A stretch of 11,111 nucleotides of DNA, from the IMG/VR virus record IMGVR_UViG_2563366932_000013. One strand, given 5' to 3'. The position numbers and the translations under genes were made by a program. A model generated the notes under the pieces. The model saw only the letters and a list, made by a program, of their open reading frames with translations. It made no database searches and was not told the origin of the DNA. Every line of letters begins with the position of its first letter. Positions within the stretch are counted from its first letter, which is position 1. This document shows positions 1 through 11,111 of this stretch, piece by piece. The DNA is from a virus (taxonomy: Duplodnaviria; Heunggongvirae; Uroviricota; Caudoviricetes).

Positions 1-1158
1 ATGCTCACCGTTAAGCAGATTGAAGCAGCAAAGCCGAAAGAAAAACCATACCGCCTACTCGATGGTAATGGCCTGTACCTTTATGTCCCTGTATCAGGGA
101 AAAAGGTATGGCAGCTTCGCTACAAGATTGACGGTAAGGAGAAAATCCTGACCGTCGGAAAATATCCACTTATGACTTTGCAGGAGGCAAGAGATAAAGC
201 ATGGACCGCGAGGAAAGACATCTCGGTTGGCATCGATCCGGTAAAAGCGAAAAAGGCTTCGTCTAACAACAATTCCTTTAGTGCGATTTACAAGGAATGG
301 TACGAGCACAAGAAGCAAGTCTGGTCAGTAGGCTATGCAACTGAACTTGCAAAAATGTTTGATGACGACATTTTACCTATCATCGGCGGCCTTGAAATTC
401 AGGATATTGAGCCGATGCAACTGCTGGAAGTAATCCGCAGATTTGAAGATCGCGGTGCAATGGAGCGAGCCAACAAAGCCCGCAGAAGATGCGGCGAGGT
501 TTTCCGTTACGCTATTGTCACTGGTAGGGCTAAATATAACCCGGCACCTGACCTTGCTGACGCCATGAAGGGATACCGCAAGAAGAACTTCCCGTTTCTT
601 CCTGCAGACCAGATCCCTGCATTCAACAAAGCACTGGCAACATTTTCAGGAAGTATCGTATCGCTCATTGCGACCAAAGTTTTACGCTACACAGCCCTAA
701 GAACGAAAGAGCTTCGTTCCATGCTATGGAAGAACGTCGATTTTGAAAACAGGATTATCACCATCGACGCCAGTGTGATGAAGGGACGCAAAATTCATGT
801 GGTCCCGATGTCAGACCAGGTGGTTGAACTTCTCACTACGCTAAGCTCCATCACCAAACCAGTATCAGAGTTTGTTTTTGCCGGGCGCAACGATAAGAAG
901 AAGCCAATCTGCGAGAACGCGGTTCTACTTGTGATCAAACAAATCGGCTATGAGGGTCTAGAAAGCGGTCACGGATTCAGGCATGAATTCAGCACGATTA
1001 TGAACGAGCACGAATGGCCTGCTGACGCTATTGAAGTGCAACTGGCACATGCCAACGGCGGATCTGTGCGCGGTATTTACAACCATGCTCAGTATCTCGA
1101 TAAGCGCAGAGAAATGATGCAGTGGTGGGCGGATTGGCTTGATGAGAAGGTAGAGTGA
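1..1158 (+). CDS. int: Tyrosine integrase, P4-type (N-terminal arm-binding domain of the DUF4102 kind)
   Basis: 385-aa ORF from ATG at 1 to TGA at 1156-1158. N-terminus AKPKEKPYRLLDGNGLYLYVPVSGKKVWQLRY matches the P4-family integrase arm-binding signature as I recall it. C-terminal part has HGFRHEF and a tyrosine near the C-terminus (IYNHAQY), as expected for tyrosine recombinases. Confidence 0.9.
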   Translation: MLTVKQIEAAKPKEKPYRLLDGNGLYLYVPVSGKKVWQLRYKIDGKEKILTVGKYPLMTLQEARDKAWTARKDISVGIDPVKAKKASSNNNSFSAIYKEWYEHKKQVWSVGYATELAKMFDDDILPIIGGLEIQDIEPMQLLEVIRRFEDRGAMERANKARRRCGEVFRYAIVTGRAKYNPAPDLADAMKGYRKKNFPFLPADQIPAFNKALATFSGSIVSLIATKVLRYTALRTKELRSMLWKNVDFENRIITIDASVMKGRKIHVVPMSDQVVELLTTLSSITKPVSEFVFAGRNDKKKPICENAVLLVIKQIGYEGLESGHGFRHEFSTIMNEHEWPADAIEVQLAHANGGSVRGIYNHAQYLDKRREMMQWWADWLDEKVE

Positions 1159-1309
1159 TCCGCCTTAACAACTATCGAAGAGCACAAAGCCTTGTGTGTC
1201 TCATAGGCTATGAAACAATCATTTTACATGGTTACTTCACTACTTCCGCACAATATGATATCGTTCACAATCTAAAAACATTAATAATTTATCCATTACC
1301 GCGGTTAAT

Positions 1310-1336
1310 GCCCGTCGCTTCCAACGGGCTTTTTTG
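1310..1336 (+). terminator. Rho-independent terminator downstream of int
   Basis: Perfect 6-bp stem GCCCGT (1310-1315) / ACGGGC (1324-1329) with an 8-nt loop, followed by TTTTTT (1330-1335), about 150 nt after the int stop. Confidence 0.5.
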
Positions 1337-1397
1337 TAAATTATATTTTTATTACCTTATATTAATATTGGTAATATGTCTGCATGATGTTTTATAT

Positions 1398-2174
1398 TTA
1401 TTGCGTGAGCTTCGCATGATAGCTGGAGCATCTCTTGTCATCACTAATTAGCTCCGCTTTATCCGTTCTTGCCCATATTATATTTCTTTTTATTATTTTT
1501 GCTGGATTACCGGCTGCTGCACACATAGATGGCACATCTTTAGTTACAATACTCCCATACCCAATGACAGATCCGCTTCCAACAGATACTCCTTTCATTA
1601 TAGAGACATTTCTCCCTACCCATACGTAACTAGATATAATGATATCTTTTGCCCAATTAATCCTTTTTTTGCTATGAATATCAAATATAGGATGCCCATC
1701 TGATGCACGCAAAATAACATCTCTTGCTATCATGCAGTCATGGCCAATTGTAACATTGCACTTATCAGTGACGACTTCAAAACCTGCACCTATTGTCGTT
1801 CTTCTACCGATAATAACTTTTGAACCTTTTGTTGCGACAATATCACCTTTAATCTTACTGTTTTTATGTATTCTTACGTAATTATTATCACCCCTAAATA
1901 TTACGGTAAGCCATCGACACTCAACATCATCTTCTATAATAAGTTTGTTATTGTTTCCATTGAACTGAACTTTATTCTCTTTGCTATTTACAAGATCTCC
2001 ACATACAAAAACATTACCTGACCCATTATCATCAACGGAAAACGAGTCTTGAGTCTTGAGTCTTGAGTCTTGAGTCTTGAGTCTTGAGTCTTGAGTCTTG
2101 AGTCTTGAGTCTTGAGTCTTGAGTCTTGAGTCTTGAGTCTTGAGTCTTGAGTCTTGAGTCTTGAGTCTTAACAT
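1398..2174 (-). CDS. neuO: NeuO-like polysialic acid O-acetyltransferase (hexapeptide-repeat acyltransferase with N-terminal RLKTQDS heptad repeats)
   Basis: 258-aa ORF, ATG = complement of 2172-2174. C-terminal half (VWVGRNVSIMKGVSVGSGSVIGYGSIVTKDVPSMCAAAGNPAKIIK) is typical of left-handed beta-helix hexapeptide acyltransferases. N-terminus is ML followed by (RLKTQDS)x6 encoded by the AAGACTC tract, matching what I recall of K1 NeuO carried by prophage CUS-3. Putative SD AGGA about 5 nt upstream of the ATG. Confidence 0.85.
   Translation of the reverse strand: MLRLKTQDSRLKTQDSRLKTQDSRLKTQDSRLKTQDSRLKTQDSFSVDDNGSGNVFVCGDLVNSKENKVQFNGNNNKLIIEDDVECRWLTVIFRGDNNYVRIHKNSKIKGDIVATKGSKVIIGRRTTIGAGFEVVTDKCNVTIGHDCMIARDVILRASDGHPIFDIHSKKRINWAKDIIISSYVWVGRNVSIMKGVSVGSGSVIGYGSIVTKDVPSMCAAAGNPAKIIKRNIIWARTDKAELISDDKRCSSYHAKLTQ
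2044..2169 (-). repeat. Perfect tandem heptanucleotide repeat, (AAGACTC)x18 on the coding strand (GAGTCTT on +), inside the neuO 5-prime coding region
   Basis: Counted directly: 126 bp from 2044 to 2169 is 18 uninterrupted copies of GAGTCTT. 126 is divisible by 3, so the tract keeps the downstream acetyltransferase domain in frame with the ATG at 2174. Confidence 0.95.
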
Positions 2175-2190
2175 ATTAGTATCCTACGTT

Positions 2191-2219
2191 ATTTTACCAC
2201 TAGTTACTTTTCTTGTCAT
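2191..2219 (-). promoter_or_regulatory. Putative sigma70 promoter for neuO with extended -10
   Basis: On the minus strand: -35 ATGACA (complement of 2214-2219), 17-nt spacer, TGg-TAAAAT extended -10 (complement of 2191-2199), about 17 nt upstream of the neuO ATG. Hexamer matching only; no experimental support. Confidence 0.4.
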
Positions 2220-2327
2220 TAAAAAGCATTTAAATTTTTATATTTAATTTCGTTGACGTCAATGTTTTTTGCCAATGTACTTACTTCTTTATGTGATCAG
2301 TTCATATTTTTGACGCCAACGAAACAT

Positions 2328-5273
2328 TTAGTGCTTCCCTTCTATTAAGTCTAACCTAGCTTTTATTCTTTCTATTTCTCTGCGCTGCCATGCTGCCTCG
2401 ATATAGAATAAGAGATCAGGTCTGACCCCCCATCTAGATCCTGCTGGCGTTATTTCAACGCGCTCAATGATGTCTTCCATTACCATCACTGGATTATCAT
2501 CCTCATCAACAATGATGCTCCCGTCATTATCAGTCAGCGGCATTTCCCTTTGGCCAGTAATGACGTCATCATATACTGCGGGATAATCGTCATAGCAAAG
2601 AAAGGCATAGCGGCATGTTGTGCTTTCTTCTTCCATGAGTCCGTGAGAAATAAGAACATCACGAAGTTGCTGCGCGATTACACCATGATGTATCCTCGCC
2701 CCTTCTTCCCCCTTTATAGCGACAGCGTTCAGCCATTTATAAGCGATATACCTGACGTCACCCCAGGCATCCAGCAATGTTTCGTCAGGAGAGACCGGCT
2801 CTGTCTTTAATGTTCCGTCACTGGTAACCACAGGATTGGAGCCAAGATAAACTATCGAGAACCTGTTTCCCGGACCACCAAGAGCATTTACATTATCAAG
2901 ATAAGGTTTAACATCTCCGTTCTCAAAAAGATGTTCGAGTGCGTTATATACCGCGCGACGTGGAGTACTGCTTCTGGAACCATGCAACGTTATCATTGCA
3001 CCATCTGCTGAAGACGTTGTTTCACCGCCGCTAACGATTAATCTCTGAGCGGTAACATCATCAGACGGTACTTTCTTCGCAATAATGGCGTAATTACCCT
3101 CAAGTTTGACTTCCGCGCGAACTTGTCCTGATGTACCTGCATGGACAGTCAGTGACTGGACGGCAACATCATCTGTGAAATCAACGGGTACAGGAACCGT
3201 CCTCACGCCTGACGTCGACATAAAAGTAGGAAGCGTTCTGTTAGGAGTGGCTCCGTAGACAAAATCCCTTGAAACAAATTCTTCCTGTTTAATTTTCACC
3301 CTGAAACAATACAAATCAGCCGGGTGACCATCGTGAACATAAGGATATTTTCTGTTGTTATCCCCTATGCTCCATGGGTTTAGAAAGTCTTCCCCACCGA
3401 AAATGTAGTACAGCCAGTTGTCTTTGATACAAACTGAACCAACACCAACCGCAGAGTTAACTATTCCGCCCTGATAAATCTGATCAGTAACATTAACCCA
3501 CTCTACATTATCCAGACTCCACTCATTGACGTTAACTCTGGTCATAAATGTTCTTGGATAGTTTCCTGCATAACGGTTATCAGGTTCTCCTCCTTCCCAC
3601 TCACCAAATGCGCGCTCACTGCCAAAAATAATCAGCTCATCGCCAACTTTGGCAAAAGGAAGGTTTGAGTGATGAACATTATTTGGGAAGCGAAGAGAAT
3701 TCCATGATGTACCTAAATCAGAGCTTCTGTGCAATGAACTACCGGGTTGAGTACTTAATGTCCCCCTGGTCGTCAGATACAGAATGCCATCATAATATTT
3801 TACACATGGCTCAGATGCATTCGCCTCATATTCTGCAGGTATGCGTCTGCGAACAAAGCTACCAGGAGAACCGAAAGCATCAGAGAAATAGAGTATCCCA
3901 AGCTCGCGTGGACCAATATCACCATTATGGTAGCCAACAGCAAAACTGTTATCGCTAATCGTCGCAAAACTGTGAATCTCAGTAACAGGAGTGCTTCCGT
4001 CAACAAAAGAAGGAATAGTTCCAAGACTGGTTTTTCTCCATGGTGACGAGTGAAATGATGTACCAAAACTCCAGTATCTACCCTCGTTATTCTGATCCAC
4101 ATCCTGGGTATTTTGCGTCGTAACTGTAAAAGTATTTTTATCAATAACAGTAGTCACCGTCATATTCCCGGTAACACCTGTAACACCAGAGTTTGAGAAG
4201 TTGACAAAATCACCAGCAAATAATCCGTGATCAGTAATGCGAATATAAGCGACTTGCTGATTTGCTGCTTTCGTTATACCACCATAAACGCGAAGGCTGC
4301 GACTCATTGGGCGATCCCACAACTCTGCAACCTGCAGTTTATTTCCGCTCACGGTCCGCGTCTCAATTACAGCAAAAAGGCGATTTCTGACAACCCCCAT
4401 ACTCATGCAGTGATAGTTAACTGTGGGATAGTTTTCATGTAAATCTGTAAGCCATTCCGGCGTTGTCCAGGTCTTCCCGTCATCTCCTGAGCGAACCCAT
4501 GCAACATGGAGGTTATTTACACCATGGCGGTCTCCAGCCATAAAAGGCGCATAGATGACATTGTCATATACAAACGTTTTATCCTGCGTCCAGGCGTTGT
4601 ACCACGGTGTATCTGTAATTTTAAATAACTCTCCCTGGATAAAATCTTCAGAAACATAAAAAAGAGGCTGACCCGGTATTCTCTCAAATAAAAAACGAGC
4701 ATTTTTAAATCGACTGACATCTGGAAGAGTTGATACTTTAAAAGTAAGCCCTCGCCCATCTATCTTTTCACCACCTGTTGCAACAGAAAGTAATTCTGAT
4801 AGAGCTGATGTATCATCATGAACACCATCACCAATAGCCCCCCAACCTCTTACATCATAACTGTCTCTCCATCTTGCTATCTGAAGTTTTGGGTATTTAT
4901 TCGCTCCATCTGGGTCTTCTAATTGCTGCCGTAGTTGATCAGGATCATACTTCAGCACATTCTGGAAATAGAACTGCTGTACGCCATACGCATCGTACAC
5001 AGCCATAGAATGGCCTTGCACAGTTACGAACTTGGCAATCCGTCCGTTATATACAGGGTAACCAGCAGCGTTAATGATGATTGGTTGCGAAACAGGAACG
5101 TGAGAGCCGTCTTCGTTCTCTACATAAACCTGAATCCGGTTTTCAGGATTTACCGGGTCAGTGTCAATTTTACCGATATAAATTTTGCCATTGGCTACGG
5201 CTTTAAAAGAACGCGCCATAGTGAAGAGTTGCGAAGGCATCGATACAATCACATTGGCTGTAATGTCTGTCAT
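2328..5273 (-). CDS. Tailspike endosialidase (endo-N-acetylneuraminidase) with P22 gp9-like head-binding N-terminal domain and C-terminal intramolecular chaperone-like domain
   Basis: 981-aa ORF, ATG = complement of 5271-5273, SD GGAG 8 nt upstream. First ~115 aa ([43 protein letters not shown]...VLKYDPDQ) closely match the P22 tailspike head-binding domain as I remember it. Two sialidase Asp-box motifs ([16 protein letters not shown]). C-terminus (...[10 protein letters not shown]...[29 protein letters not shown]) resembles the autoproteolytic chaperone domain of endosialidase tailspikes. Confidence 0.85.
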
Positions 5274-5330
5274 TTAATTTGCTCCAGATGCAAAGAATCG
5301 CCGCAGCATGGCCACGGTGAATTTTGGGCA

Positions 5331-5354
5331 TAAAAAAACCCAGCCGAAGCTGGG
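5331..5354 (-). terminator. Rho-independent terminator (minus strand) between the upstream gene stub and the tailspike gene
   Basis: Read on the minus strand: stem CCCAGC/GCTGGG (5339-5344 and 5349-5354) with a 4-nt loop, followed by a 7-nt U tract (complement of A run 5332-5338). Confidence 0.5.
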
Positions 5355-5373
5355 TCGTTGCGTTGGTTATCTG

Positions 5374-5582
5374 TCAGTAATTATGTACTGAAGGAGGTAA
5401 TTCTTTATTCTTAAGTCTCATCCATGCGGAAAGATTCGTTGGTCCGTCTGGCTCATTGATATCAACATCTCGTGTGTGATTGATTAAAACGTCTCTCGCC
5501 ATATCGATAATACGGGAGAACTCATAACCGCAGTCATGACATCTGCCGGAATAGTTCGATTGAATTTGTTTTAGCGCCGGAT
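5374..5582 (-). pseudogene. 3-prime fragment (about 69 codons) of a gene whose 5-prime part was lost at the IS911 junction
   Basis: The six-frame ORF 5374..5631 runs into the IS: its first 16 codons are IS-end sequence, so only the C-terminal portion ([32 protein letters not shown]...SVHNY) is non-IS DNA. I do not recognise the family. Confidence 0.45.
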
Positions 5583-5654
5583 TGAAGTGGTTTACTGAAT
5601 TTGGCCACCTGAACAGAGGTGATATGCTCACCTCAGAACAACACAGGTGCCATA

Positions 5655-6802
<1,148 letters not shown>

Positions 6803-6832
6803 CTCGGTGGCCAGTTTTTGTTGACCACTTCA

Positions 6833-7003
6833 ATGCAACAGTTCGCTATTGCAGGGGCGGCATCGGTTCGCCCTTTCAACCCGATTTTATCGGTACAGCA
6901 TTCACGAAAAAACATTTTAACCGGAGCAGACTTTAAACAACCAAGAATGAAAAGCTTGCTCGAAAAGCTTTGGGATATTTTGAAACAACAAGGCCGTCCA
7001 TGA
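6833..7003 (+). CDS. cIII: cIII-like protein
   Basis: 56-aa ORF whose ATG (6833-6835) immediately follows the IS right end. N-terminus MQQFAIAG resembles lambda CIII MQYAIAG, and a central SLLE...DIL.Q.G.P stretch is similar. It sits first in an operon followed by erf, as in lambdoid/P22 pL operons. Confidence 0.5.
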   Translation: MQQFAIAGAASVRPFNPILSVQHSRKNILTGADFKQPRMKSLLEKLWDILKQQGRP

Positions 7004-7158
7004 GTTTTACGGATAACTGGTCAGACGAAGAATTCATTCGTCAGATAAAAGAATTAATCGGTAACGAAGGAGATATTCATGTCACTTGCAACCACAGTGA
7101 AGGAGAGCAAGTTACAGAGACGCATGTACACGCAGAAAGCTCTCTGGTATCGCCATAA
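7000..7158 (+). CDS. Small hypothetical protein (52 aa) at the position that kil occupies in the P22 pL operon
   Basis: ATG at 7000 overlaps the cIII-like stop (ATGA). Acidic small protein MSFTDNWSDEEFIRQIKELIGNEGDIHV... Positional inference only; the sequence is not recognised. Confidence 0.4.
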   Translation: MSFTDNWSDEEFIRQIKELIGNEGDIHVTCNHSEGEQVTETHVHAESSLVSP

Positions 7159-7259
7159 TGGTGACCGCGAAGGAATGCGGGTATGCCTTAATTTGTCCCG
7201 AGTCGAAGTATTAAATCAGCGTTATTTCCTTGGGCCGTGTCCATTCTGAGAGCAATCAT

Positions 7260-7865
7260 ATGAGCAAAGAATTTTACGCAAGACTGGCAGCTATTCAGGA
7301 GAATCTGAACGCGCCAAAGAATCAGTACAACTCATTCGGCAAATATAAATACAGAAGCTGCGAAGATATTCTTGAAGGCGTTAAGCCGTTACTGAACGGT
7401 CTGTTTTTATCAATCAGCGATGAAGTTGTGTTGATTGGTGATCGGTATTACGTGAAAGCCACGGCAACTATTACCGATGGCGAAAACAGTCATACGGCAA
7501 CCGCTCTTGCACGAGAGGAAGAAAGCAAGAAAGGAATGGATTCTGCACAAGTTACGGGAGCTACAAGCTCTTATGCACGCAAGTATTGCCTCAATGGTTT
7601 GTTCGGCATTGATGATGCGAAAGATGCAGATACAGACGAGCATAAACATCAGCAGAACGCAGCAGCAAAGCAATCAAAACCATCACTTACACCTGAACAG
7701 GTTCTAAAAGCATTCACTGACGCAGCAATGCAGAAAAACACCGTAGAAGAGCTTAAACAGGCGTTCGCCAAAGCGTGGAAGATGCTCGAAGGGACGCCGG
7801 AGCAGCACAAAGCGCAGGACGTTTACAACATCAGACGAGACGAATTAGAAGGGGCAACTGCTTAA
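7260..7865 (+). CDS. erf: Erf single-strand annealing protein (essential recombination function)
   Basis: From ATG at 7260 the protein begins MSKEFYARLAAIQENLNAPKNQYNSFGKYKYRSCEDILEGVKPLL..., matching P22 Erf as I remember it almost residue for residue in the N-terminal domain. Stop TAA at 7863-7865. Confidence 0.9.
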   Translation: MSKEFYARLAAIQENLNAPKNQYNSFGKYKYRSCEDILEGVKPLLNGLFLSISDEVVLIGDRYYVKATATITDGENSHTATALAREEESKKGMDSAQVTGATSSYARKYCLNGLFGIDDAKDADTDEHKHQQNAAAKQSKPSLTPEQVLKAFTDAAMQKNTVEELKQAFAKAWKMLEGTPEQHKAQDVYNIRRDELEGATA

Positions 7866-8248
7866 TGGCACATTCGATTACAGTAAGACTAAACAAACCC
7901 GCAAGAGAGTTTCAGGGCGGGGAAAATATCGGATTCAACATCCGTGCTGGCGTTCAGTATTACGATCGCCAGACAAAAAAGAAAGAATGGACAAACTACA
8001 GCGCCGTTGTATTTGCCAAGCCGGGAGCGCAAGCGGATTACTATCGTAGCGTTCTGGTTGAAGGAGGCATTGTAGAAATTACCGGAGAAAACATCAGGGT
8101 TGATGTTTATCAGGGGCAAAATGGTCAATCAATCACTCTTGAATTACTGAATGCAAAGATTGGATTTGCAACTTCAGGAAACAGCCAACAGCAGCAAAGT
8201 AGCAATCATCAAAATAATCCTGAATACGACGATTCCATCCCATTCTGA
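7865..8248 (+). CDS. Phage SSB-like OB-fold protein with acidic C-terminal tail
   Basis: 127-aa ORF, ATG overlapping the erf stop (TAATG). Ends ...QQQQSSNHQNNPEYDDSIPF, echoing the E. coli SSB C-terminal tip DDDIPF preceded by a Gln-rich linker. The N-terminal part has an OB-fold-like pattern (EWTNYSAVVFAKPG...VEITGE). Confidence 0.65.
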   Translation: MAHSITVRLNKPAREFQGGENIGFNIRAGVQYYDRQTKKKEWTNYSAVVFAKPGAQADYYRSVLVEGGIVEITGENIRVDVYQGQNGQSITLELLNAKIGFATSGNSQQQQSSNHQNNPEYDDSIPF

Positions 8249-8271
8249 TTTAGAAAAATAAGGATTTAATT

Positions 8272-8568
8272 ATGCCAGCGCCTTTGTATGGTGCGGATGA
8301 CCCGCGCCGCTGTTCCGGCAATTCCGTATCGGAGGTGCTGGATAAATTCAGAAAAAACTACGATCGAATAATGTCTCTACCGCAGGAAACGAAAGAGGAA
8401 AAGGAATTTCGCCACTGTATATGGCTTGCAGAGAAAGAAGAACGCGAGCGAATTTACCAGACATCAATCCGACCATTCCGCAAAGCCACATATACCCACT
8501 TCCCTGAATATATCGACCCGCGCCTGCGTAATTACCGCTCACGCTATGGCGCTATCAGTAATGACTGA
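8272..8568 (+). CDS. Hypothetical protein (98 aa), basic and helical
   Basis: ORF with SD AAGGA 8 nt upstream of ATG 8272. Its position after erf/ssb and its size are similar to where anti-RecBCD abc genes lie in P22, but I cannot confirm this by sequence. Confidence 0.5.
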   Translation: MPAPLYGADDPRRCSGNSVSEVLDKFRKNYDRIMSLPQETKEEKEFRHCIWLAEKEERERIYQTSIRPFRKATYTHFPEYIDPRLRNYRSRYGAISND

Positions 8569-8662
8569 GGAATTTACCATGAGAGGACTTGCTTAAGAGA
8601 AAGAGTTTCGGTTCTGTTAATGACAACAAATATCTGAATGCGATGTGGCGGAGTGGGAAGAA

Positions 8663-9181
8663 ATGAAACAAATGTCACTAATTGAGATGGATGGTTTTCT
8701 GAAAGGTAAATGCATCCCAAGTGATTTAAAGGTTAACGAAACAAACGCTGAATACCTTGTCCGTAAGTTCGGTGAACTTGAATCAAAACTGGAAACGGCG
8801 TTGCGGGAGTGTAGTTCTGCTGGAATCACGATTGATAACCTTGAGGCTAAATGCGCGAAGATGGCTGCTGAAAATACCTCACTTAAGCAATCTGAGAAGG
8901 AATTTAATGACTTTTGTCGTGAGGAGTTTAGCGAATGGGAAGATGATGTTACTGAAACCCCAGCCACCGATGCTTTTCTGGCTGAAGTGCGGGCGCAGGG
9001 GGTGGATGCTGCTATAGAAGCTGCAAAAAATCTGGTGGCCCAAGAATATGAGTATAAGGATTTCAAAGCGGCGCAGAGTGATTGCTGTATGCACCCTGGT
9101 TCAGACCTGGTAGGGAAGGTTGAAATGACTGAGTGGTTAGTTGACTTTGCTGCCCAGCTTCGCAAAGGAGGCAACCAGTGA
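8663..9181 (+). CDS. Hypothetical protein (~172 aa), acidic, predicted helical/coiled-coil
   Basis: Long ORF in the same orientation as the operon. Start taken as ATG 8663; the track starts at the GTG at 8645, which is also possible. Not recognised. Confidence 0.5.
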   Translation: MKQMSLIEMDGFLKGKCIPSDLKVNETNAEYLVRKFGELESKLETALRECSSAGITIDNLEAKCAKMAAENTSLKQSEKEFNDFCREEFSEWEDDVTETPATDAFLAEVRAQGVDAAIEAAKNLVAQEYEYKDFKAAQSDCCMHPGSDLVGKVEMTEWLVDFAAQLRKGGNQ

Positions 9182-9477
9182 CTGTATGTCTTATTGATAA
9201 ACGTCGACGTGGGCAACAAATACCATCTGTTGAAATGCCGAATCACACATGGTTTTGCGTACTTGATATCGATGGTATGGATTCGTTGGTTGACACTCGT
9301 CATTACTGCGATACCGCAACAGCTACTCCGGCGAAAGCAAAGAAAATGGCTGCTCTGATAGAAAACTGGACTCCACCTGATGGTTGGTGCAATGGGAATG
9401 ATCGAGATTGGCACGAAAAAATGAAGGGCTATATCTGCGATTTTTTACGTAAATGCAACGGCTTCAGGGGGATGTGA
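9178..9477 (+). CDS. Hypothetical Cys-rich protein (99 aa)
   Basis: GTG start at 9178 overlapping the previous stop (GTGA), with a strong SD AAAGGAGG 6 nt upstream. Six cysteines. Not recognised. Confidence 0.5.
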   Translation: MTVCLIDKRRRGQQIPSVEMPNHTWFCVLDIDGMDSLVDTRHYCDTATATPAKAKKMAALIENWTPPDGWCNGNDRDWHEKMKGYICDFLRKCNGFRGM

Positions 9478-9478
9478 T

Positions 9479-10051
9479 ATGACCAAAATTAACTATCAGG
9501 CACTGCGTGAGGCGGCAGAACGTGCAATTCCGGCAATGGAACGCCTGTTAATGTTGCCAGTTGATGATGATTTGTTAAGTGAACAGGAACTTAAGGATTA
9601 CGGTGTGGATATTGATGCGCTCAACGCCTTCAAATTTCTGACCGGACCAGAAACCGTGCTGGCGCTGCTGGATGAACGGGAAAGAAACCAGCAATACATC
9701 AAACGCCGCGACCAGGAGAACGAGGAAATTGCGCTAACGGTAGGGAAGCTGCGCGTTGAGCTGGAAGCTGCAGAGAAGCGCATTGCAGAACTGGAAGCCG
9801 AACCTGTAAGCCAAACTTACAAGTTGAACGAGCTGTCGGGCAACTATCCGGTAACTCCGGATGGTTGGATAAGCTGTAGTGAGCGAATGCCCGCTCAAGA
9901 TGATTGGATTTTAATTTATTCAAAGCACGGCGAGTATATGGCAGGACAGGTACAAGGGGAATACGTGGAGTTGAGCGACGGCACTTTATCGTGGTTAGGG
10001 AACGCCTTGTACTGGATGCCTCTACCGGAACCGCCGCAGGAGGTTAATTGA
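9479..10051 (+). CDS. Ead/Ea22-like protein with C-terminal DUF551-like domain
   Basis: ATG 9479 with SD AGGGGGA. N-terminus MTKINYQALREAAERA and C-terminal W...SERMPAQDDWILIY...WMPLPEPP pattern resemble prophage Ead/Ea22-family DUF551 proteins as I recall them. Confidence 0.6.
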   Translation: MTKINYQALREAAERAIPAMERLLMLPVDDDLLSEQELKDYGVDIDALNAFKFLTGPETVLALLDERERNQQYIKRRDQENEEIALTVGKLRVELEAAEKRIAELEAEPVSQTYKLNELSGNYPVTPDGWISCSERMPAQDDWILIYSKHGEYMAGQVQGEYVELSDGTLSWLGNALYWMPLPEPPQEVN

Positions 10052-10245
10052 TGGTCTCCTTCGCGAAATATACGATTATTGACTGGATAGCATTCATTCA
10101 GGTTTTGCTCATCTGGTTTTATATGGCTTACAGGAGTGGACAGTGGATTGTCAGTGTAGCCTGTAGCAATGGATGGCGTTGGTGGAACCGAAAGAATAAA
10201 AAAAGCGCTGGCCTTGGCTTCGTTTTACGAAGCATTCAATCTTAA
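10051..10245 (+). CDS. Small hydrophobic protein (64 aa), one predicted transmembrane helix
   Basis: ATG 10051 overlapping the upstream stop, SD GGAGG 7 nt upstream. Hydrophobic stretch IIDWIAFIQVLLIWFYMAY followed by a Trp/Arg-rich tail. Confidence 0.4.
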   Translation: MVSFAKYTIIDWIAFIQVLLIWFYMAYRSGQWIVSVACSNGWRWWNRKNKKSAGLGFVLRSIQS

Positions 10246-10328
10246 CAGTCTTCAGCCTGGTTCTGTCGTTGTAGTCACCACTCAAAGCGGCATGACGATA
10301 CAAATTCACAAGCCAAAGGAGGAAGGTC

Positions 10329-10613
10329 GTGGCTAACCTGCAACTTGCCGTTAAAGGTGAATACTTCGATGCCATGATTCGCGGAGAGAAAACGGAAGAG
10401 TATCGCCTGTGTAATGACTACTGGAATAAGCGAATTATGTTCCGCGAGTATGACCGCCTGATTATCACAAAGGGATATCCGAAGCGCGACGATTCCAGCC
10501 GCAGAATTGACGTCCCGTATGACGGATATGAAATCAAGACAATCACACATCCGCACTTCGGCGATAAACCGGTAAAGGTGTTCGCTATAAAGGTGAATAT
10601 CGACAATGAATGA
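10329..10613 (+). CDS. ASCH / DUF3850-like (PUA-like beta-barrel) protein
   Basis: GTG start 10329 with a strong SD AAAGGAGGAAGG upstream. LQLAVKGEYFDAMIRGEKTEEYR... resembles ASCH-domain prophage proteins from memory. Confidence 0.5.
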   Translation: MANLQLAVKGEYFDAMIRGEKTEEYRLCNDYWNKRIMFREYDRLIITKGYPKRDDSSRRIDVPYDGYEIKTITHPHFGDKPVKVFAIKVNIDNE

Positions 10614-10614
10614 T

Positions 10615-10670
10615 AATCCTCGCACTCGCGGGGATTTCTTTTATCTGAACTCGCTACGGCGGGTTTTGTT
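10615..10670 (+). terminator. Tandem hairpin / U-tract terminator-like region after the ASCH-like gene
   Basis: Hairpin AATCCTCGC-ACTC-GCGGGGATT (10615-10636) followed by TCTTTTAT. A second short hairpin CTCGC-TACG-GCGGG (10650-10663) is followed by TTTTGTTTT. Confidence 0.4.
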
Positions 10671-10685
10671 TTATGGAGATGATAA

Positions 10686-10853
10686 ATGCACTTCCGAGTC
10701 ACAGGTGAATGGAATGGAGAGCCATTCAACAGAGTTATCGAAGCAGAGAACATCAACGACTGCTATGACCACTGGATGCTGTGGGCGCAGATAGCACATG
10801 CAGACGTAACTAATATTCGAATTGAAGAACTGAAAGAACACCAAGCCGCCTGA
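10686..10853 (+). CDS. Small hypothetical protein (55 aa)
   Basis: Not in the ORF track (below its length cut-off). ATG 10686 with SD GGAGA 6 nt upstream; hand-translated as MHFRVTGEWNGEPFNRVIEAENINDCYDHWMLWAQIAHADVTNIRIEELKEHQAA, stop TGA 10851-10853, ending inside a terminator hairpin. Confidence 0.4.
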   Translation: MHFRVTGEWNGEPFNRVIEAENINDCYDHWMLWAQIAHADVTNIRIEELKEHQAA

Positions 10854-10866
10854 TGGCGGTTTTTTA
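10844..10866 (+). terminator. Rho-independent terminator
   Basis: Stem AGCCGCC / GGCGGTT (10844-10850 and 10855-10861) with loop TGAT, followed by a T run to 10865. Confidence 0.55.
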
Positions 10867-10910
10867 TTGCCTGATTTGCAGGTTCGATTCCCTATTCGGA
10901 GATAGCACTC

Positions 10911-11111
10911 ATGCAACACGAACTACAACCTGATTCACTGGTTGATTTGAAATTCATCATGGCCGATACTGGCTTCGGTAAAACCTTCATCTATGACCGG
11001 ATTAAGTCCGGCGACCTGCCAAAAGCCAAAGTTATCCACGGGCGAGCAAGATGGTTATATCGTGACCATTGTGAATTCAAAAATAAGCTCTTAAGCCGCG
11101 CCAATGGGTAA
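10911..11111 (+). CDS. AlpA-family helix-turn-helix regulator / excisionase-like protein
   Basis: 66-aa ORF, ATG 10911 with SD GGAGA. LVDLKFIMADTGFGKTFIYDRIKSGDLPKAKVIHGRARWLYRDHCEF fits the AlpA / phage excisionase HTH pattern (recognition helix with TIY, then a basic wing with W). Stop TAA is the last three bases of the window. Confidence 0.7.
   Translation: MQHELQPDSLVDLKFIMADTGFGKTFIYDRIKSGDLPKAKVIHGRARWLYRDHCEFKNKLLSRANG

Follow-up and report, generated by a model that had tools for sequence, protein, structure and literature searches.

An intact CUS-3 endosialidase tailspike gene in an 11-kb E. coli prophage remnant, probably a silent leftover

A tailspike gene for a capsule depolymerase with a P22-type attachment domain lies next to a capsule-modifying gene in an element without virion genes, and this raises the question of whether it is a silent relic or an enzyme domesticated by the host. 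To answer it we analyzed the whole stretch of 11,111 nucleotides (IMG/VR record IMGVR_UViG_2563366932_000013, hereafter the window), in which the gene is an intact open reading frame of 981 aa plus stop. We conclude that the observation is real but ordinary and already known, and that domestication is unsupported. The gene and its parts are as follows:

2328-5273, minus strand: endosialidase tailspike gene, siaK1 allele (open reading frame, Pfam, PDB, alignment)
4935-5273, minus strand: head-binding (tail-attachment) domain of P22 gp9/Sf6 gp14 type, aa 1-113 (PF09008, E 3.8e-64; PDB 7SG7, 1LKT, 2XC1, 8TVR)
3288-4838, minus strand: endosialidase N-terminal extension and six-bladed GH58 beta-propeller, aa 146-662 (PF12218, PF12217, PF12195; alignment to endoNF 1V0E)
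4056-4304, minus strand: inserted beta-barrel domain, aa 324-406 (PF12195)
2823-3287, minus strand: endosialidase stalk (tail-spike) domain, aa 663-817 (PF12219, E 6.7e-78; 1V0E/3GVL)
2331-2822, minus strand: C-terminal intramolecular chaperone domain, aa 818-981 (PF13884; PDB 3GW6)

The preliminary description of this DNA had proposed a P22 gp9-like N-terminal domain, a sialidase-type catalytic region with two Asp-boxes and a C-terminal chaperone-like domain. All three were borne out, and the HMM search it had named as a check found both the endosialidase beta-propeller and the S74 domain. Pfam profiles covered the protein as Head_binding (aa 1-113), End_N_terminal (146-212), End_beta_propel (213-662, E 1.2e-233, full profile), End_beta_barrel (324-406), End_tail_spike (663-817) and Peptidase_S74 (818-878). 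Against the PDB, aa 1-126 matched the head-binding domains of the Sf6 and P22 tailspikes (E down to 2.7e-64), aa 145-817 matched endoNF (1V0E/3GVL, E = 0, with 1V0E aligned end to end) and aa 698-979 matched the endoNF C-terminal chaperone (3GW6, E 1.8e-93). The two Asp-boxes, SGDDGKTW near aa 262 and SSDLGTSW near aa 517, were read in the sequence. Residues E488, R503 and R554 align with 1V0E chain positions 337, 352 and 403, which we take to be the endoNF catalytic-site residues E581, R596 and R647, as the chain indexing agrees. The start of the S74 domain carries a Ser-Lys dyad, S818 and K823, which is the predicted autocleavage site; in GH58 tailspikes the S74 chaperone is released after trimerisation. 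With its propeller, Asp-boxes, beta-barrel, catalytic-site residues and S74 chaperone, the protein can be assigned to the GH58 phage endosialidases, and its N-terminal gp9-type head-binding domain would place it among P22-like (Lederbergvirus) tailspikes. If made, it would be a functional, self-cleaving trimeric endosialidase.

By its sequence, the protein is the known capsule depolymerase from the tail of CUS-3, a prophage of E. coli K1. It is identical to the siaK1 tailspike of RS218 CUS-3 at 975 of 981 residues, with all six differences within aa 43-121 and the catalytic and chaperone parts 100% identical. The CUS-3 siaK1 record carries a direct-assay annotation of endo-alpha-2,8-sialidase activity on polysialic acid (PMID 16689790). 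At the DNA level, the gene shows no difference over 2946 nt from copies in other genomes (PU-1 and others) that have P22-type tail and injection genes directly upstream, and its intactness is therefore uninformative on selection.

The window is the complete 11-kb CUS-3 remnant between tRNA-Arg (argW) and dsdC. The features outside the tailspike and neuO are:

1-1158, plus strand: intS, P4-type prophage integrase of CUS-3/KplE1 (Pfam Phage_integrase and Arm-DNA-bind_3; CUS-3 int 192-1349; annotated intS beside tRNA-Arg in CEA212U)
5337-5356, minus strand: intrinsic terminator between the ant stop and the tailspike start (terminator scan, sequence, fold)
5374-5582, minus strand: 3' stub of ant (antirepressor), 209 nt, last 69 codons with stop (P22AR_C, E 2.2e-13; CUS-3 homology stops at 5582)
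5583-6832, plus strand: ISEc52-family IS3 element, 1250 bp, orfA and orfB (HTH_Tnp_1, rve; PGAP name; 100% identical to copies at five other loci)
6833-7003, plus strand: small early-left gene WP_001183771.1, its ATG directly abutting the IS right end
7260-10853, plus strand: remaining early-left operon genes (99.9% match to CUS-3, Pfam ERF, annotation)
10876-10891, plus strand: 16-bp attR core (annotated in the CUS-3 record)
10911-11111, plus strand: torI, excisionase-type recombination directionality factor (PGAP annotation; weak HTH_17 match)

The order is thus intS, neuO, tailspike, ant stub, ISEc52, early-left genes and torI, the last gene before dsdC. The tRNA-Arg gene (argW, attL) lies just left of the window, and the 16-bp attR core TTGCAGGTTCGATTCC recurs within it. 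In CEA212U, a 100%-identical genome with a closed chromosome, the element is bounded by tRNA-Arg and yfdC on the left and by dsdC on the right, and the flanks are contiguous core genes. The early-left survivors comprise erf, a hypothetical gene (7865-8248), anti-RecBCD, ead/Ea22-DUF551, a frameshifted DUF4752 gene, an ASCH-domain gene and others. We rejected the DUF4752 frameshift as a sign of post-deletion decay, as it is also annotated in ESBLEC_HM50, which retains virion genes; a homopolymer sequencing error is also possible at this site. Rfam and tRNA scans of the window gave no matches. The window shares with CUS-3 the argW integration, IntS, the 16-bp att core and the int-neuO-tailspike-ant order. 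It is not a complete inducible CUS-3 genome, as about 30 kb with the immunity, replication, lysis and virion genes is absent. Virion genes (gp4, gp10, gp26 hub, portal, coat) were found neither in the window nor within 12 kb on either side of the element in CEA212U. This agrees with the claim that portal, coat, hub and injection genes are missing, none being among the window's open reading frames; P22-like structural genes just outside, which would have told against an orphaned tailspike, are likewise not found beside the element in that genome. CEA212U carries no insertion at pgl-bioA, the other site known for CUS-3.

Upstream of the tailspike, the preliminary description had listed a terminator, a gene stub and IS911. 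The first two stand, and the third is an IS3-family element whose NCBI name is ISEc52 family; its OrfA and OrfB look IS911-like. The terminator (5356-5337) reads GACCCAGC-UUCG-GCUGGGUU followed by U7, with an 8-bp stem and a UUCG loop. The ant stub is 100% identical to the intact ant of PE144, and its mechanical open reading frame runs on to 5631 inside the IS end. The ISEc52 copy has the ends TGAAGTGG...CCACTTCA and no target-site duplication in the window (left flank GAT, right flank ATG).

On the other side of the tailspike, 153 bp downstream and on the same strand, lies neuO:

1398-2174, minus strand: neuO, phase-variable polysialic acid O-acetyltransferase, 258 aa (open reading frame, Hexapep)
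2044-2169, minus strand: neuO poly-psi tract, 18 perfect AAGACTC copies, GAGTCTT on the plus strand (TRF: period 7, 18.0 copies, 100% match)
2191-2219, minus strand: best sigma-70-like promoter match of the region, ATGACA-17-TAAAAT with upstream TG (consensus scan, 10/12 matches; a match alone, not function)

This gene is full-length and in phase ON because its 18 heptad repeats are a multiple of 3 (frame rule: PMC13001214), in comparison to 19 (OFF) in CUS-3. Within the same remnant type the number varies, with 8 repeats in CEA212U, 12 in L012 and 18 in the window. The promoter match falls between the tailspike stop and the neuO ATG, and neuO therefore probably has its own promoter. In K1 strains neuO is regulated by DsdC (PMC9659370). 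It is a cargo gene known to benefit the host, through capsule O-acetylation and resistance to phage and neutrophils.

Enterobacteria phage CUS-3 (CP000711; prophage of E. coli K1 RS218) is collinear with the window across the integrase, neuO, tailspike, ant 3' end and early-left genes, all in matching orientation, at 98.9% nucleotide identity in the left block and 99.9% in the right. Window positions 1-5582 correspond to CUS-3 192-5780 and 7000-10891 to CUS-3 36317-40207, with the IS between; in place of about 30 kb (CUS-3 5781 to about 36.2 kb) the window has one ISEc52 and a 167-bp stretch, which carries a small gene absent from RS218 CUS-3. Position 6833 is the right-hand deletion junction and is common to nested remnants. 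The window type (with L012), L014 and L017 all have the IS right flank ATGCAACAG, whereas their left flanks map to three different positions, 9692, 9312 and 7507, of L009, a copy with intact upstream region. As three remnant types share this right flank and differ on the left, the anchoring IS copy is therefore the early-left one. ESBLEC_HM50 has two direct ISEc52 copies around the lysis and virion module, one of which sits in ant as a simple insertion flanked by a 3-bp duplication. Together, the shared right junction, the differing left junctions and the ESBLEC_HM50 pair point to IS-mediated deletion. An order of events starting with an ISEc52 insertion into ant and followed by a deletion to the right, with ESBLEC_HM50 as precursor, was considered and rejected: the ant insertion of that strain lies 21 bp off the window junction and has its own 3-bp duplication, and the right flank common to three remnant types speaks against it as well. 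Copies of an IS are a classic source of mis-assembly, and each genome holds several identical ISEc52 copies, so that the junction could in principle be a repeat mis-join hiding a full prophage. We give this next to no credence, as both junctions recur identically in independent assemblies (the window, CEA212U and CP164910.1, which is L012), related nested junctions occur in L014 and L017, and in CEA212U the chromosome is closed with contiguous core-gene flanks.

We consider it very likely that the window is a recent deletion derivative of a P22-like temperate CUS-3 at argW, with the tailspike most likely left as a silent leftover. The identity of the gene, the integrity of its domains, the junctions, the genomic context and the recurrence of such remnants are observed directly, whereas we infer how the events followed one another, by which recombination mechanism, and that the gene is not expressed. 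The source strain would be an E. coli of K1-associated lineages, with the prophage integrated at argW in the native order attL-int-neuO-tailspike-ant moron-virion genes-lysis-Q-replication-immunity-early left-xis-attR. The starting point would have been an ISEc52 copy immediately upstream of the small early-left gene. A deletion anchored on this copy would then have removed about 30 kb, with one endpoint at the left end of the IS and the other in the 3' part of ant. It would probably have come about by recombination with a second, directly oriented ISEc52 copy that had landed in ant; the alternative would be an IS-end-mediated (one-ended) adjacent deletion, and the present data fit both routes. 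The tailspike would owe its survival solely to its position beyond the deletion endpoint, on the neuO side.

Such a deletion would leave the tailspike cut off from its transcription. The tailspike lies in the late operon behind the ant moron (PMC2629481). In P22-like phages it is the last gene of that operon, and only Q-antiterminated transcripts would run through the ant moron and terminator into it. The window has lost the late promoter, the Q antiterminator and the ant promoter and still has the terminator that precedes the tailspike; the gene is therefore most likely transcriptionally silent, a young relic that would not yet have had time to decay. Genes to the right of the tailspike are all on the opposite strand. 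A consensus scan of the minus strand from 5273 to 7300 gave no promoter-like site, although weak internal or cryptic promoters may escape such a scan. Lysogens of the P22-like prophage BTP1 show several secondary transcription start sites in the tailspike gene, on both strands (PMC7067206), which counts against silence. The supplement of PMC9659370 holds no tailspike expression data.

Truncated CUS-3 elements with this exact tailspike have at least five different junction pairs, and independent remnants stop short of the gene in the window type, the 19AR0253 type, PE144, L014 and L017. Selection is one possible reading of this pattern, but a need to keep neuO with its promoter would produce it just as well, and so would ascertainment, as the sampled contigs were chosen for carrying this exact tailspike protein. 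The gene is dispensable elsewhere: N63 keeps neuO with only 204 nt of the tailspike left, and an IS3-family element lies inside the tailspike in FY26, NCTC11151, MS20654 and GPEC128-620, so that K1 strains with the tailspike IS-disrupted or nearly deleted retain neuO. Genomes covering at least 80% of the 10 kb upstream of an intact-upstream copy numbered 39, vs 181 for the tailspike, a comparison that is uninformative as a remnant fraction because the ant moron and injection region are mosaic. SCU-125, considered as a remnant with a truncated tailspike, proved to be a separate prophage whose endosialidase protein is a chimera of 1039 aa. Decay of CUS-3 to 8-10 kb between neuO and dsdC, with neuO retained, has already been published (PMC9659370). 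The pairing of a depolymerase with a capsule-modifying gene in a virion-less remnant had been called unusual, and this did not hold, since int-neuO-tailspike-ant is the native CUS-3 order, such remnants recur and their decay is on record.

Other readings give the retained gene a function. The host could express the endosialidase from a cryptic promoter and use it against the polysialic acid of its own K1 capsule, for instance in trimming, turnover or dispersal, and phase-variable O-acetylation by NeuO might modulate the sensitivity of the capsule. The open reading frame and all catalytic and chaperone residues are intact, the adjoining neuO is still phase-varying, the gene is retained in several independent remnants, and the BTP1 data make secondary promoters possible. 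Against this, the terminator stands in front, the scan found no promoter-like site and the Pfam scan of the tailspike found no signal-peptide or export domain; a cytoplasmic endosialidase would meet nascent polymer and would more likely be harmful, and other neuO-keeping K1 strains have the gene IS-cut or nearly deleted. We regard such domestication as very improbable. The same low standing applies to low or conditional transcription from a cryptic promoter, with active enzyme remodeling the K1 capsule together with NeuO or arming incoming P22-like phages; if true, this would explain why several independent CUS-3 deletions end just short of the gene. Of the two outcomes first proposed for this gene, silent relic or domesticated enzyme, the relic is favored by the lost promoter and Q and the kept terminator, and domestication is left unsupported by the absence of nucleotide differences and by the cutting or loss of the gene elsewhere.

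The benefit could instead be to phages, with the remnant a reservoir of a K1 host-range module from which a P22-like phage acquires the tailspike by recombination or, if it is transcribed, by pseudotyping. The conserved P22-type adaptor takes up the N-terminal ~115 aa, and DNA matching this part occurs in about 1166 of 5426 complete E. coli genomes, over roughly 11-16% of the gene length among the matches listed. In SCU-125 the endosialidase module, at 99.5% nucleotide identity, is fused to a different N-terminus in another prophage, and the module therefore does move. The erf and anti-RecBCD genes also survive in the remnant. However, this is the evolutionary opportunity of any prophage fragment and not a function maintained in the window element, pseudotyping requires expression, which is unlikely, and CEA212U has no second CUS-3-like prophage at pgl-bioA; we judge this reading unlikely. 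It is also conceivable, though barely so, that the tailspike DNA and not its protein is retained, for cis elements of neuO expression or phase variation or for a superinfection-exclusion antisense RNA as in BTP1. The closeness of neuO on the same strand and its regulation by DsdC (PMC9659370) would suit the former, and the BTP1 antisense RNA overlapping the tailspike 5' end (PMC7067206) the latter. Opposed to this are the promoter-like site of neuO's own in the intergenic region, the near-loss of the tailspike beside a kept neuO in N63, and the lack of any Rfam family in the window.

On this preferred reading as a recent relic, the locus is an example of textbook prophage decay, in which the beneficial neuO is kept, its neighbor hitch-hikes and IS elements delete the dangerous modules. 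Its practical use is limited. Finding neuO or the endosialidase gene in a K1 genome is no sign that an inducible CUS-3 is present. Lineages might be tracked by the nested IS junctions, and an active endosialidase sequence can be taken straight from the intact gene. The wider question of bacterial co-option of phage depolymerases would be touched only if the gene proved to be expressed.

Compared with known systems, endoNF of coliphage K1F (1V0E, 3GVL, 3GW6) has the same GH58 layout, catalytic-site residues and C-terminal intramolecular chaperone as the window tailspike. Their catalytic parts are similar without being identical, the window protein having one 7-residue insertion, and endoNF has a T7-like capsid adaptor where the window tailspike is of P22 gp9 type at its N-terminus. 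The P22 gp9 and Sf6 gp14 tailspikes share with it a homologous head-binding domain (aa 1-~120, E down to 2.7e-64) and are likewise encoded by the last late gene, behind the ant moron and terminator; they have an endorhamnosidase beta-helix in contrast to the endosialidase propeller of the window tailspike. The E. coli K-12 cryptic prophage KplE1 (CPS-53) has the same argW site and IntS/TorI recombination module. It is presumably also a virion-less remnant, with O-antigen conversion genes and tail-fibre fragments where the window has neuO and the endosialidase. The degraded CUS-3-like elements of SCU-116, SF-088, SCU-175 and CE10 have the same argW-dsdC locus and the same loss of phage content (PMC9659370); neuO lies about 8-10 kb from dsdC in those strains, and here about 9.1 kb separate the neuO 5' end from dsdC. 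That study gives the distances and neuO status and does not cover the junctions of the deletions or what became of the tailspike; the present analysis adds the nested junctions anchored on the IS and the intact tailspike.

The reading frame at 2328-5273 (minus strand) is unbroken and encodes 981 aa. Pfam searches divided the protein as follows.

Domains of the tailspike, from Pfam
aa 1-113: P22-type head-binding domain, very strong score
aa 146-212: endosialidase N-terminal extension, very strong score
aa 213-662: catalytic beta-propeller, full profile, E 1.2e-233
aa 324-406: beta-barrel inserted in the propeller, very strong score
aa 663-817: stalk, very strong score
aa 818-878: S74 chaperone, very strong score

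A PDB search matched aa 145-817 to K1F endoNF (1V0E/3GVL), aa 698-979 to the endoNF C-terminal chaperone (3GW6), and aa 1 to ~120 to the N-termini of the P22 and Sf6 tailspikes. In the residue-level alignment E488, R503 and R554 pair with the endoNF residues that we take to be E581, R596 and R647, with agreeing chain indexing, and S818 and K823 lie at the start of the chaperone domain. As no module expected of a phage endosialidase tailspike was missing, and both Asp-boxes were seen in the sequence, the architecture proposed in the preliminary description was confirmed in full. The protein is identical to CUS-3 SiaK1 at 975/981 positions, all six differences falling within aa 43-121, and the endosialidase activity of CUS-3 siaK1 is annotated in the database with direct-assay evidence. 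The predicted product qualifies in full as a GH58 endosialidase tailspike carrying a P22-type adaptor. Strain SCU-125 carries, in a different prophage adjoining yfgI, a gene (8972-12091) for a 1039-aa protein whose N-terminus is not P22-type; ~81% of the window tailspike gene aligns to it at 99.5% nucleotide identity, which exemplifies transfer of the endosialidase module from one phage type to another.

Megablast against phage records identified the element as CUS-3 of E. coli K1 RS218. The window runs from the ATG of a P4-type integrase to the torI stop codon, and is built as follows.

Blocks of the window
1-5582: CUS-3 192-5780, with int, neuO, siaK1 and the 3' end of ant
5583-6832: IS3-family element of 1250 bp between the two CUS-3 blocks, encoding orfA and orfB
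7000-10891: CUS-3 36317-40207, early-left genes as far as the annotated attR core

About 30 kb of CUS-3, from 5781 to about 36.2 kb, has been lost, comprising most of ant, immI, the injection, tail, head, terminase and lysis genes, Q, nin, the replication genes, cro/cI, N and kil. The closed CEA212U genome carries the region at 100% identity to the window, except for ten fewer neuO repeats, directly between tRNA-Arg/yfdC and dsdC; pgl-bioA, the other site that CUS-3 can occupy, is empty in this strain. No intact P22-like structural genes were found just outside the element in CEA212U, so the tailspike does stand without virion genes. The element is not a complete CUS-3 and its tailspike is not within a virion operon, which is what remnant status means. 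The adjacency of a depolymerase and a capsule-modifying gene, previously thought unusual, is not special to this locus, as int-neuO-tailspike-ant is the native CUS-3 order.

Upstream of torI, at 10876-10891, is the 16-bp core that the CUS-3 annotation marks as attR; on the downstream side of torI there is a second repeat, of 17 bp, matching the extreme 3' end of tRNA-Arg (CTGCAGGGGACACCATT; CEA212U, L002: 11810, 22806, 23115). These are two nested attR candidates, and torI could be part of CUS-3 or of an older layer resembling KplE1. At ~10198-10204 a DUF4752 early-left gene is frameshifted by an A7 run, where CUS-3 and 19AR0253 have A6. Annotation of ESBLEC_HM50 shows this gene frameshifted as well, which makes the change either older than the large deletion or a recurrent homopolymer error.

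The IS element (ends TGAAGTGG...CCACTTCA) is annotated by NCBI as ISEc52 family and is presumably IS911-like; 167 bp with a small early-left gene follow it directly. No target-site duplication was found at its borders (left flank GAT, right flank ATG), as expected if the flanks derive from different places. An 85-aa ORF at 5374-5631, which PGAP names a "P22AR C-terminal domain-containing protein", is in fact a fusion: the IS left end supplies the GTG start and first 16 codons, and ant contributes no more than the final 69. We looked up contigs encoding the exact tailspike protein, which gave ten distinct contexts, and mapped each ISEc52 copy with its flanks.

ISEc52 junctions (left flanks placed on L009, a copy with an intact upstream region)
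Window type (window, CEA212U, CP164910.1): left 9692, in ant; right ATGCAACAG, ATG of the small gene at window 6833
Nested 2 (remnant L014): left 9312, deeper in ant; right ATGCAACAG, as in the window type
Nested 3 (remnant L017): left 7507, adjoining a Clp-protease gene; right ATGCAACAG, as in the window type
Independent (19AR0253, 19AR1321): left 9335; right window 6985
Independent (PE144): left 5822, in the gp16 injection gene; right just before torI

Three remnant types thus share one right junction and differ at the left, forming a nested deletion series; such a pattern marks deletions that are anchored on an IS copy already in place. In ESBLEC_HM50 one ISEc52 copy, flanked by a 3-bp duplication, has simply inserted into ant at a point 21 bp away from the window junction, and a second copy, directly oriented, sits between the holin gene and a truncated replication gene, so that the two bracket the whole lysis and virion module. 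This arrangement is likely the intermediate state, from which recombination between the direct copies would give a structure of the window's kind; the alternative to such recombination is a one-ended adjacent deletion. ISEc52 is very active in CUS-3-bearing lineages (the window, CP164910.1, L014, L017, L005, L003, L004 and L020). It has hit ant at three different insertion points, in one orientation throughout. In AR_0058 it lies (13899-15149) in an unrelated lambdoid prophage at argW, of RecT type and without neuO or tailspike, ~200 bp upstream of WP_001183771.1, the same small gene that abuts the IS in the window; the early-left region near this gene may be a preferred ISEc52 target.

The preliminary description left open whether the orphan was a silent relic or a domesticated enzyme. 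A strong intrinsic terminator (5356-5337; 8-bp stem, UUCG loop, U7) stands in front of the tailspike gene, a scan of the gene's strand from the ATG to position 7300 found no sigma-70-like site, and the genes to its right are all transcribed in the opposite direction. In P22, reading through the terminator to the tailspike reportedly needs Q-type antitermination. The tailspike gene of P22-like phages comes last among the late genes, after the ant moron, and is reached from the late promoter (PMC2629481); late promoter, Q and ant promoter are all gone from the remnant. In lysogens of prophage BTP1, transcription in the tailspike region also begins at several secondary sites, on either strand (PMC7067206), so, as far as sequence alone can tell, the gene may be weakly expressed.

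All 2946 nt are identical to tailspike copies that have P22-type genes for tail and injection proteins immediately upstream (PU-1 among others), and the deletion is too recent for an intact ORF to signal selection. In the CSF isolate N63 (5566-7023), a similar CUS-3 remnant at the same locus retains intS, the early-left genes and neuO (52 repeats, OFF), but a different IS3-family element, bearing an AL1L pseudoknot, has deleted the tailspike down to its last 204 nt; an IS interrupts the tailspike gene in FY26, NCTC11151, MS20654 and GPEC128-620. These cases indicate that the tailspike is dispensable in K1 strains. Judged from transcription signals, recency and dispensability, it is probably not doing anything. 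The relic reading therefore gained ground, whereas domestication found no support and is very improbable; the gene is likely a relic, young and probably silent, of a prophage gene already known. Its neighbor neuO has a promoter-like site of its own (2219-2191) and 18 AAGACTC repeats (2044-2169), in frame and ON. The same remnant type has 8 (OFF) in CEA212U and 12 (ON) in CP164910.1, showing that this contingency locus has kept switching since the bulk of the prophage was lost.

The feature is real and was correctly described, but is an ordinary one for which an explanation already exists. Much is known of CUS-3, neuO and the endosialidase tailspike, all of them well characterized. A 2022 paper describes CUS-3-like phages as prone to decay, with neuO to dsdC as little as 8 kb and strains tabulated at 8.4, 10.2, 10.5, 17.6 and 22.1 kb (PMC9659370). 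The present element, with neuO about 9.1 kb from dsdC, belongs to that decay class, to which our analysis adds junction-level detail, in the form of nested deletions anchored on an IS, together with the finding that remnants usually, though not always, keep the tailspike.
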